A stretch of DNA of 43,119 nucleotides from a virus: the UHGV virus genome UHGV-0017337; one strand, written 5' to 3'. Under the pieces are notes generated by a model. That model had not been told where the DNA came from and did no database searches. It saw nothing but the letters and a program-made list of their open reading frames with translations. Positions 7,654 through 7,876 of this stretch are shown piece by piece; position 1 is the stretch's first letter; every line of letters starts with the position of its first letter. The translations under genes and the position numbers were made by a program.

Positions 7654-7876
7654 TTACTGGCGTGGTTGCTGACCAGAATCATCTCGTTTACCGCCAAGCA
7701 TTTGCATGACTCCTCCCATCTGTGGAATGACAATCTCAGTGGTATATCGGTCTACGCCGTTGCTGTCAGTCCACTTACGAGTGCGTAGCTGTCCTTCGAT
7801 ATAAACCTGCAAACCTTTGCGAAGGTATTCTCCTGCTACTTCTGCAAGTTTTCCGAAGATGACCACGCGATGCCAT
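7654..7876 (-). pseudogene. ssb: ssb remnant (internally deleted single-stranded DNA-binding protein gene)
   Basis: ATG GCA TCG CGT GG (MASRG, the SSB N-terminus) joins directly to [31 protein letters not shown]...MQMLGG in another frame; OB-fold core and acidic tail absent. Confidence 0.6.

Follow-up and report, generated by a model that had tools for sequence, protein, structure and literature searches.

A 5'-truncated ssb pseudogene, very probably brought into a 9NA-like phage along with a Skatevirus-type tailspike cassette

The virus genome UHGV-0017337, analysed here as one stretch of 43,119 nucleotides (the window), is that of a 9NA-like siphophage (Nonanavirus/Sashavirus) and carries, on its minus strand between a tail-tip gene and a convergent tailspike gene, a remnant of a gene for a single-stranded DNA-binding protein (SSB). 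Comparison with related phages and metagenome contigs indicates that this remnant (7552-7935, -) is very probably a 5'-truncated ssb pseudogene that hitch-hiked into a 9NA-like phage with a Skatevirus-type tailspike cassette. In the proposed event, recombination would have exchanged a 9NA-like tailspike body for a Skatevirus-type one, with a left crossover in the conserved Tail_spike_N domain (~5779) and an illegitimate right crossover joining codon 34 of the donor ssb to DNA just past the stop codon of the tail-tip gene (~7936-7945); the imported block would thereby have brought with it the terminator of the donor along with three-quarters of its ssb, from the 3' end. Lacking a start codon, a ribosome-binding site and the part of the OB fold around the first beta-strand, the fragment would not be expected to produce a working SSB, and it is decaying. 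The truncation coincides with the end of the imported block, the intact gene stands beside the same module in donor-type phages, and the gene is absent from sister phages; by these comparisons the locus is a recombination scar of an ordinary kind and no gene with an internal deletion. We infer the direction of transfer, and that the capture happened once, from the same comparisons.

The fragment corresponds to the 3' three-quarters of a phage ssb gene

The fragment is read in one minus-strand frame from 7935 to 7552, collinear with codons 34-161 of the intact ssb of Skatevirus-type phages, which encodes 161 amino acids (aa). With the SSB of ASO78B as query, tblastn finds 88% aa identity to residues 28-161 (E=9e-65), in frame -1 throughout; the SSB of Escherichia coli (UniProt P0AGE0) aligns over residues 29-178 with 54% identity (E=1e-44), in one collinear alignment and again in frame -1. 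When both in-frame stop codons are read as glutamine (Q), the fragment matches Pfam PF00436 (SSB) over profile positions 30-101 of 104 (E=1.6e-24; 86 bits, cut-off 26), compared with positions 1-101 for the intact ASO78B protein. The similarity to SSB, which a preliminary sequence-only reading of this locus had proposed, is far beyond chance; that reading also held that most of the OB fold is missing, and here the profile match disagrees, since only positions 1-29 are absent. A complete OB fold (positions ~1-104) is not present, the first 33 codons being replaced by the end of the tail-tip gene and a spacer. The closest sequences at the DNA level (88-91%) are the intact ssb genes, of 161-164 aa, of the 46-48-kb Skatevirus-type siphophages ASO78B, KFS-SE2, ZCEC08, Seszw, HC6 and BS5.

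The real defects of the fragment are the absence of the first 33 codons and two in-frame nonsense codons, each a single C->T change: a TAG (7920-7918), at a position that is CAG or CAA (Gln) in every other aligned sequence, and a TAA (7656-7654), which is CAA in every other aligned sequence that covers the position, phage 536P12 being deleted around it. The fragment also bears several radical missense changes. The TAA cuts off the linker and the acidic tail, which the sequence-only reading believed lost: the acidic C-terminal tip NEPPMDFSDDIPF (7593-7555, -) is encoded in frame 3' of the TAA and is followed by the true stop codon TGA (7554-7552). The codons for MDFSDDIPF within it (7581-7555) lie 3' of the TAA and thus cannot belong to any product of the upstream open reading frame (ORF). 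With SSB homology reaching 7935 upstream, the feature spans 7552-7935 and not merely 7654-7876 as first delimited.

The imported block and its donor type

The tailspike gene (5575-7515, +) encodes 646 aa. From within this gene to the ssb fragment, the window aligns with an IMG/VR contig, UViG_3300018486_000072 (L102), in a single BLAST alignment of 2,187 nucleotides (nt) at 88.8% identity (window 5779-7934, L102 3914-6097), and the right end of this alignment is ssb codon 34. L102 encodes, in order, a tail protein, a 639-aa tailspike, a convergent intact ssb of 168 aa, a recombinase and an exonuclease; its flanks are of the Skatevirus type (83-90% identity to KFS-SE2, ASO78B and ZCEC08). The imported block (5779-7935) comprises the tailspike from residue ~69, a terminator and the 3' three-quarters of ssb. 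An identity profile places its left boundary sharply at ~5779-5788: upstream, the window is 88-98% identical to Escherichia phage KarinMuster_Bas82 (Bas82) and unrelated to L102, and downstream the relationship is reversed. The boundary falls within the Pfam Tail_spike_N domain (tailspike residues 64-130, ~5764-5965), which retains 77-80% nt identity between 9NA-like and Skatevirus-type groups. The N-terminal anchor of the tailspike (to ~5778) is thus 9NA-like, and its receptor-binding body is 91% identical both to L102 and to Shigella phage pSb-1.

The arrangement that would account for the hitch-hiking is regular among phages of the donor type. Their gene order is exonuclease, recombinase, ssb and then a convergent tailspike, with ssb and tailspike sharing one bidirectional terminator; recombinase, ssb and convergent tailspike occur in this order in all six GenBank donor-type phages examined (ASO78B, KFS-SE2, ZCEC08, Seszw_1, HC6 and BS5), and L102 likewise has its ssb convergent to the tailspike. 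In the window the corresponding hairpin, AACCCCGCTTCGGCGGGGTT (7522-7541; -14 to -16 kcal/mol), is a strong bidirectional terminator between the stop codons of the tailspike and of ssb. The same hairpin is common to Skatevirus-type phages, pSb-1 and other carriers of the remnant, and it is likely to be a crossover point. A search for structured RNA in 7300-8200 returned only sub-threshold Rfam matches, on this hairpin.

The match to pSb-1, an N4-like podovirus, extends over window 5866-7547 (+) (L010 2501-4182) at 91% nt identity and includes the downstream terminator. In pSb-1 the tailspike region is annotated as two hypothetical coding sequences (gp19 and gp18) and may be split or mis-called there.

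A second donor-type contig is available for two other carriers of the remnant, both IMG/VR contigs: each aligns with the intact-ssb contig L032 over 1,017 contiguous nt at 95% identity, in an alignment that begins exactly at codon 34, crosses the terminator and runs into the tailspike. Exchange of tailspike bodies between the two groups is seen also where no ssb is involved. AVIO78A, which is 9NA-like, and ASO78B, which is of the Skatevirus type, were both isolated on E. coli O78 and have 1.6 kb of tailspike body in common (93% identity; L005 4062-5661, L001 3475-5074); by this comparison they represent an independent cross-genus tailspike swap without ssb sequence.

One junction in seven carriers

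The fragment occurs in seven sequences: the window, BDX09P1, 536P12, Bas82, the two IMG/VR contigs (UViGs) and the metagenome contig QZLM01004012.1. In the 9NA-like phages 9NA, AVIO78A, Sasha and PDP46 there is no SSB match in the tail-tip/tailspike region; the two genes converge directly or with a short spacer, PDP46 having one small extra ORF between them. Examination of relatives for an intact ssb at this site, which the sequence-only reading had recommended, therefore finds none in these four phages and a truncated copy in all seven carriers. Because the sister phages have no ssb at the site and every carrier is already truncated, the gene was probably never working in this lineage. Of the earlier description of a decaying, acquired or formerly functional ssb, the foreign origin, the decay and the loss of function stand, and the former function in this lineage does not.

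On its right-hand side the fragment has as its neighbour the J-like tail-tip gene (7966-10497, -; 843 aa), which ORF and orthologue comparison assigns to the 9NA-like backbone. The junction is identical in all seven carriers: TAA CAAGTTATCTAAGCCGTTGGCTTGTTTTTT and, immediately after it, GTTGCAACATCTGAG... A comparison of the seven shows that a carrier-specific spacer of 30 nt (7936-7965, -), identical in all of them, separates the tail-tip stop codon from ssb codon 34. The spacer contains a weak hairpin, AAGCC-GTT-GGCTT (7955-7943; -5.6 kcal/mol), which is followed by a run of T and is terminator-like. Homology of non-carriers to the window ends at the tail-tip stop codon, resuming at 7971, and the right-hand junction of the imported block lies at ~7936-7945.

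The tail-tip gene ends (window 7966-7971, -) in ...YQDDL* in all carriers and in ...YQDD* in non-carriers, from which it follows that the insertion junction altered the last codon and stop of this gene. In its spacer region 536P12 keeps 'TTTCC', like intact genes. A scan of metagenome contigs for the junction pattern gave three matches, two of which (L019 and L020) were rejected as chance occurrences having no similarity to the window.

Points against a single clean import, and possible reuse of the remnant

Several observations weigh against the account given above. No near-identical donor (>98%) was found. The ssb part of the window is 83.6% identical to L102, compared with 91% for the tailspike part, and the nearest ssb allele is that of ASO78B (~91%); the imported block is thus itself mosaic and may not have arrived in one piece. 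The spacer (7936-7965) is 47% identical to codons 23-33 of the donor ssb and may be either diverged ssb sequence or filler DNA. The annotators of Bas82 called its open copy a 130-aa SSB. Finally, the pairwise ratio of nonsynonymous to synonymous divergence (omega) among carrier fragments is low (0.12) and three of the seven copies are open, which, taken alone, could mean purifying selection on a translated product. For BDX09P1, 536P12 and Bas82, no contiguous ssb-plus-tailspike donor was found in GenBank phages; the searches yielded donor-type contigs for the window (L102) and the UViG carriers (L032) alone.

The divergence among carriers suggests that the history of the locus did not end with the capture. 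Synonymous divergence (dS) between carrier fragments is 0.36-0.58, with omega ~0.12, and the tail-tip gene next to them reaches roughly half this dS (0.17-0.27); comparisons between intact ssb genes give an omega of 0.05. Neighbour-joining of 21 intact and 7 truncated copies recovers the carriers as one clade in 0 of 200 bootstraps. The two IMG/VR contigs cluster with the intact gene of L032 in 196 of 200 and, like it, have a diagnostic 15-nt insertion and the variants HRIV and FSDD. The receptor-binding body enclosed by the same two flanks differs from carrier to carrier: that of the window resembles pSb-1 and L102; that of BDX09P1 matches tail-fibre genes of ~155-kb E. coli phages and of a 72.6-kb phage; that of 536P12 is Phapecoctavirus/Justusliebigvirus-like; and that of Bas82 is like that of Bas105, a 39.7-kb phage. 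Taken together, the bodies of BDX09P1, 536P12 and Bas82 match rV5-like or Phapecoctavirus-type myoviruses and Bas105.

Decay in situ of a single captured copy, evolving neutrally, was considered as the sole process and rejected. It would be expected to scatter differences over every codon position, to an extent close to the neutral divergence of the backbone; the differences between copies are mostly synonymous, and they exceed the dS of the flanking gene.

The most parsimonious history is that a single illegitimate capture was followed by repeated homologous exchanges with Skatevirus-type phages, in which the resident ssb remnant (or its terminator) and Tail_spike_N would have served as the two homology arms. 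At each exchange, sequence of a functional allele would replace part of the remnant and would then in turn begin to decay. We infer on this basis that the remnant may now act as a recurrent homology arm, a proposal that ranges from somewhat doubtful to slightly favoured according to how strongly it is worded. In its strong form, in which the remnant persists as a cis-acting 'landing pad' that, together with Tail_spike_N, enables cross-genus swaps of receptor-binding cassettes along with fresh ssb sequence during co-infection, the idea is tentative, and we would sooner bet against it than for it. More remote still is a variant in which the open copies, those of Bas82 and the UViGs, would be translated into a truncated SSB that titrates the partners of host SSB with its acidic tip.

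The strongest competitor is that the scar is passive and has never been reused, the diversity of carriers having arisen from several captures, or from exchange of the junction region among 9NA-like phages, and not from recombination with intact ssb. No crossover point is mapped directly inside the fragment; in some swaps the right-hand crossover could have been at the shared terminator (26 nt, also in pSb-1) by itself; and Bas82 departs from the others directly behind the ssb stop codon, all of which this explanation accommodates. It accommodates less well the repeated origin of an identical illegitimate junction, which is improbable, the interleaving of fragments with intact alleles (most clearly the grouping of the UViG carriers with L032, with its bootstrap support and shared insertion and variants) and the two-fold excess of synonymous divergence over the flanking tail-tip gene. 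We consider a wholly passive scar unlikely, though it deserves more weight than any of the alternatives that follow.

Decay, and the question of a translated product

Independent disabling lesions are present in four of the seven carriers. The window has its two nonsense codons, BDX09P1 has a different nonsense codon, 536P12 has a 1-nt deletion together with deletions of 15 and 3 nt, and QZLM01004012.1 has a frameshift; the remaining three are open. Private substitutions in carriers number 27 nonsynonymous or nonsense to 18 synonymous, compared with 8 to 34 in intact genes (Fisher p=1.6e-4), and even the open copy of Bas82 has changes at strongly conserved residues (R to H in RTRKW, M to T, and P to S). 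Judged by these counts, the recent substitutions in carriers are under relaxed constraint, and the pattern is not that of purifying selection. When 8-16 random substitutions were simulated, the probability that the frame stays open was 0.39-0.62; three open frames in seven thus fit neutral drift.

A consensus scan of 7300-8200 finds no sigma-70-like promoter, there is no ATG at the 5' end of the fragment, and there is no Shine-Dalgarno sequence before either the GTG at 7866, which opens the 70-aa ORF seen in the sequence-only reading, or the TTG at 7944. The latter, the start codon used in the Bas82 annotation, sits inside the weak hairpin of the spacer (-5.6 kcal/mol). No tRNA genes are present in the window, which therefore encodes no suppressor for the TAG or the TAA. 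The Bas82 copy, Bas82_0054 (PQ850612.1 30145-30537; L003 3027-3419), was deposited as 'single strand DNA binding protein'; as this is again the 5'-truncated remnant, here given a TTG start that no Shine-Dalgarno sequence precedes, the functional annotation is probably an over-call.

The truncated gene might nevertheless be functional, encoding an N-terminally shortened SSB of ~130 aa, whose translation would begin at the TTG at 7944 or be coupled to that of the tail-tip gene, and which would keep the acidic tip and act as a modified SSB or as a decoy for host proteins that bind SSB, in which case the window copy would have lost its function recently. The frames open through to DDIPF in Bas82 and the two UViGs (3 of 7 carriers), the pairwise omega of 0.12 and the annotation of Bas82_0054 as an SSB would all suit such a gene. 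Yet the lesions in the other four carriers are independent, nonsynonymous changes are over-represented among private substitutions, in the open Bas82 copy too, the putative TTG lies in a hairpin and has no Shine-Dalgarno sequence, and the fragment lacks the first ~29 positions of the Pfam profile, where SSB has strand beta-1 and part of its tetramer interface. Polyphyletic import from functional alleles accounts for the low omega, and three open frames in seven are what neutral drift predicts. A functional truncated gene is accordingly improbable, and a decaying pseudogene remains the better description.

Less probable again is that the stops or the truncation are sequencing or assembly artefacts of an intact ssb. 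Both stops are single C->T changes, of the kind that errors or deamination could introduce into a metagenome assembly; but the truncation, with the identical junction, recurs in seven independently assembled sequences that include cultured, fully sequenced phages, there is no room for the missing 99 nt given that the tail-tip gene ends 30 nt upstream, and with both stops corrected the gene would still be start-less and truncated.

An off-frame start codon and the supposed internal deletion

The sequence-only reading was built on the minus-strand string ATGGCATCGCGTGG, read as M-A-S-R-G, and on a peptide ending in MQMLGG; both are present, at 7876-7863 and 7866-7654 respectively. It took the former for the N-terminus of an SSB, followed by a jump into a different frame. 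There is no such jump, the SSB codons on both sides sharing the frame of K-W-H-R-V-V (aaa tgg cat cgc gtg gtc, 7878-7861), of which the +1 frame reads ATG GCA TCG CGT GG; MASRG is thus an off-frame coincidence inside a conserved EWHRVV motif. The same 14-mer (7863-7876, -) sits mid-gene, at the corresponding place, in each of the six intact ssb genes aligned. Every carrier has it too apart from 536P12, whose copy of the 14-mer lacks 1 nt, and the real N-termini of intact phage ssb genes are MARGVNK or MSSIGINK. Alignment with E. coli and phage ssb genes, proposed with the original reading as a check, bears out the SSB similarity and reveals no deletion joint: the alignment to intact genes is gap-free across the supposed joint, and the 'start' corresponds to off-frame codons 53-58.

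That a full-length ssb, resident or recently acquired, underwent an internal deletion which fused its MASRG start out of frame and removed its acidic tail is consequently the least tenable explanation and can practically be set aside, for although ATGGCATCGCGTGG does translate to MASRG, the first five residues of E. coli SSB, and directly abuts VIFGKLAEV, the 14-mer is the +1 frame of KWHRVV and is identical in mid-gene in intact ssb genes, SSB homology reaches 59 nt beyond the ATG on its upstream side with no change of frame, and only Pfam positions 1-29 are missing, the acidic tail being present.

The resident SSB of the lineage

Reliance on host SSB, which the sequence-only reading drew from the state of this gene, does not follow. 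Bas82_0067 is annotated as Gp2.5-like, and its N-terminal 202 residues match PF10991 (Enc34_ssDNA-bd) with 27.7 bits (cut-off 26). The window begins inside the orthologous gene, the last 71 codons of which (3-215, +) are 98.6% identical at the aa level to residues 273-343 of Bas82_0067. By homology, then, the lineage keeps its own Enc34/Gp2.5-like ssDNA-binding protein, and for this reason the ssb remnant does not imply dependence on the SSB of the host. No second bacterial-type SSB was detected elsewhere in the window by tblastn.

Bas82_0067 contains about ten tandem copies of a linker repeat of the APTPAAAPVA type. A 252-aa ORF of the window (27745-28503, -) shares with the C-terminus of the Gp2.5-like SSB a motif of ~40 residues (KARGNTYEEFIATGWNDDQLVEHGYA; 55% over 42 aa), which could be a common partner-binding module.

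Genomic context

The window is ~95% identical over 25 kb to the Sashavirus BDX09P1, to Bas82, to PJ16 and to AVIO78A, and it matches Sasha, Sergei, Solent and 9NA more weakly. Approximately 450 nt without a long ORF lie between the stop codon of the tail-tip gene and that of the convergent tailspike. The tail-tip protein has ~97% aa identity to its Bas82, BDX09P1 and UViG orthologues and a weak match to the Pfam family FNIII-A_GpJ; with an omega of ~0.05 among carriers, its gene is, by this measure, under strong constraint.

Significance and comparison with known systems

Horizontal transfer of tail-fibre genes was described by Haggard-Ljungquist et al. (1992), as cited in PMC10612097. The BASEL paper (PMC11990801) describes Bas82 and Skatevirus isolates, and the term 'ssb' does not occur in it. 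A literature search found neither an earlier description of the remnant nor a publication that connects ssb remnants with the exchange of tailspikes.

In comparisons of gene content and function among 9NA-like phages, the remnant should be treated as a pseudogene, and the locus says nothing about dependence on host SSB. Its value is as a clean molecular marker of cross-genus tailspike exchange, which gives both breakpoints and, probably, the direction (from Skatevirus-type to 9NA-like). The polyphyly of the carriers suggests that junk from one swap becomes a homology arm for the next; such reuse would bear on the evolution of host range and on the design of recombination-based tailspike engineering in these phages.

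The closest known counterpart of the fragment is the SSB of Skatevirus-type phages (161 aa; ASO78B_063/UAW58767.1, and QDB70214.1 of KFS-SE2), to which it is ~90% identical in nt and 88% in aa over codons 34-161, and with which it shares the linker, the DDIPF-type acidic tip, the downstream bidirectional terminator and the convergent tailspike. Unlike that gene, the fragment of the window has no codons 1-33, no start codon and no ribosome-binding site, bears two stops and radical missense changes, and follows a tail-tip gene instead of an exonuclease-recombinase module. It resembles E. coli SSB (P0AGE0) at 54% aa identity over residues 29-178, including the PPMDF.DDIPF tip, but is not host-derived, its nearest relatives being phage genes at ~90% nt identity. 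The same locus, junction and truncated gene are found in Bas82_0054 of KarinMuster (PQ850612.1) and in its unannotated equivalents in BDX09P1 and 536P12; these differ from the window in that the Bas82 copy is open (130 aa when counted from the TTG) and no longer has the shared terminator, and in that the lesions of BDX09P1 and 536P12 are different ones.

Stranded gene fragments at module borders and horizontal exchange of tailspike and tail-fibre cassettes are well established in the mosaicism of tailed phages, and the locus is a new, well-resolved example of this known mosaicism and not a new kind of element. As in modular exchange of tail fibres and tailspikes generally, a receptor-binding module with conserved flanks has been swapped between unrelated phages, and a fragment of a neighbouring gene has been dragged along and decays. 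Where the window appears to depart from the usual remnants at mosaic junctions is that the dragged-in remnant seems here to have become a conserved flank itself.

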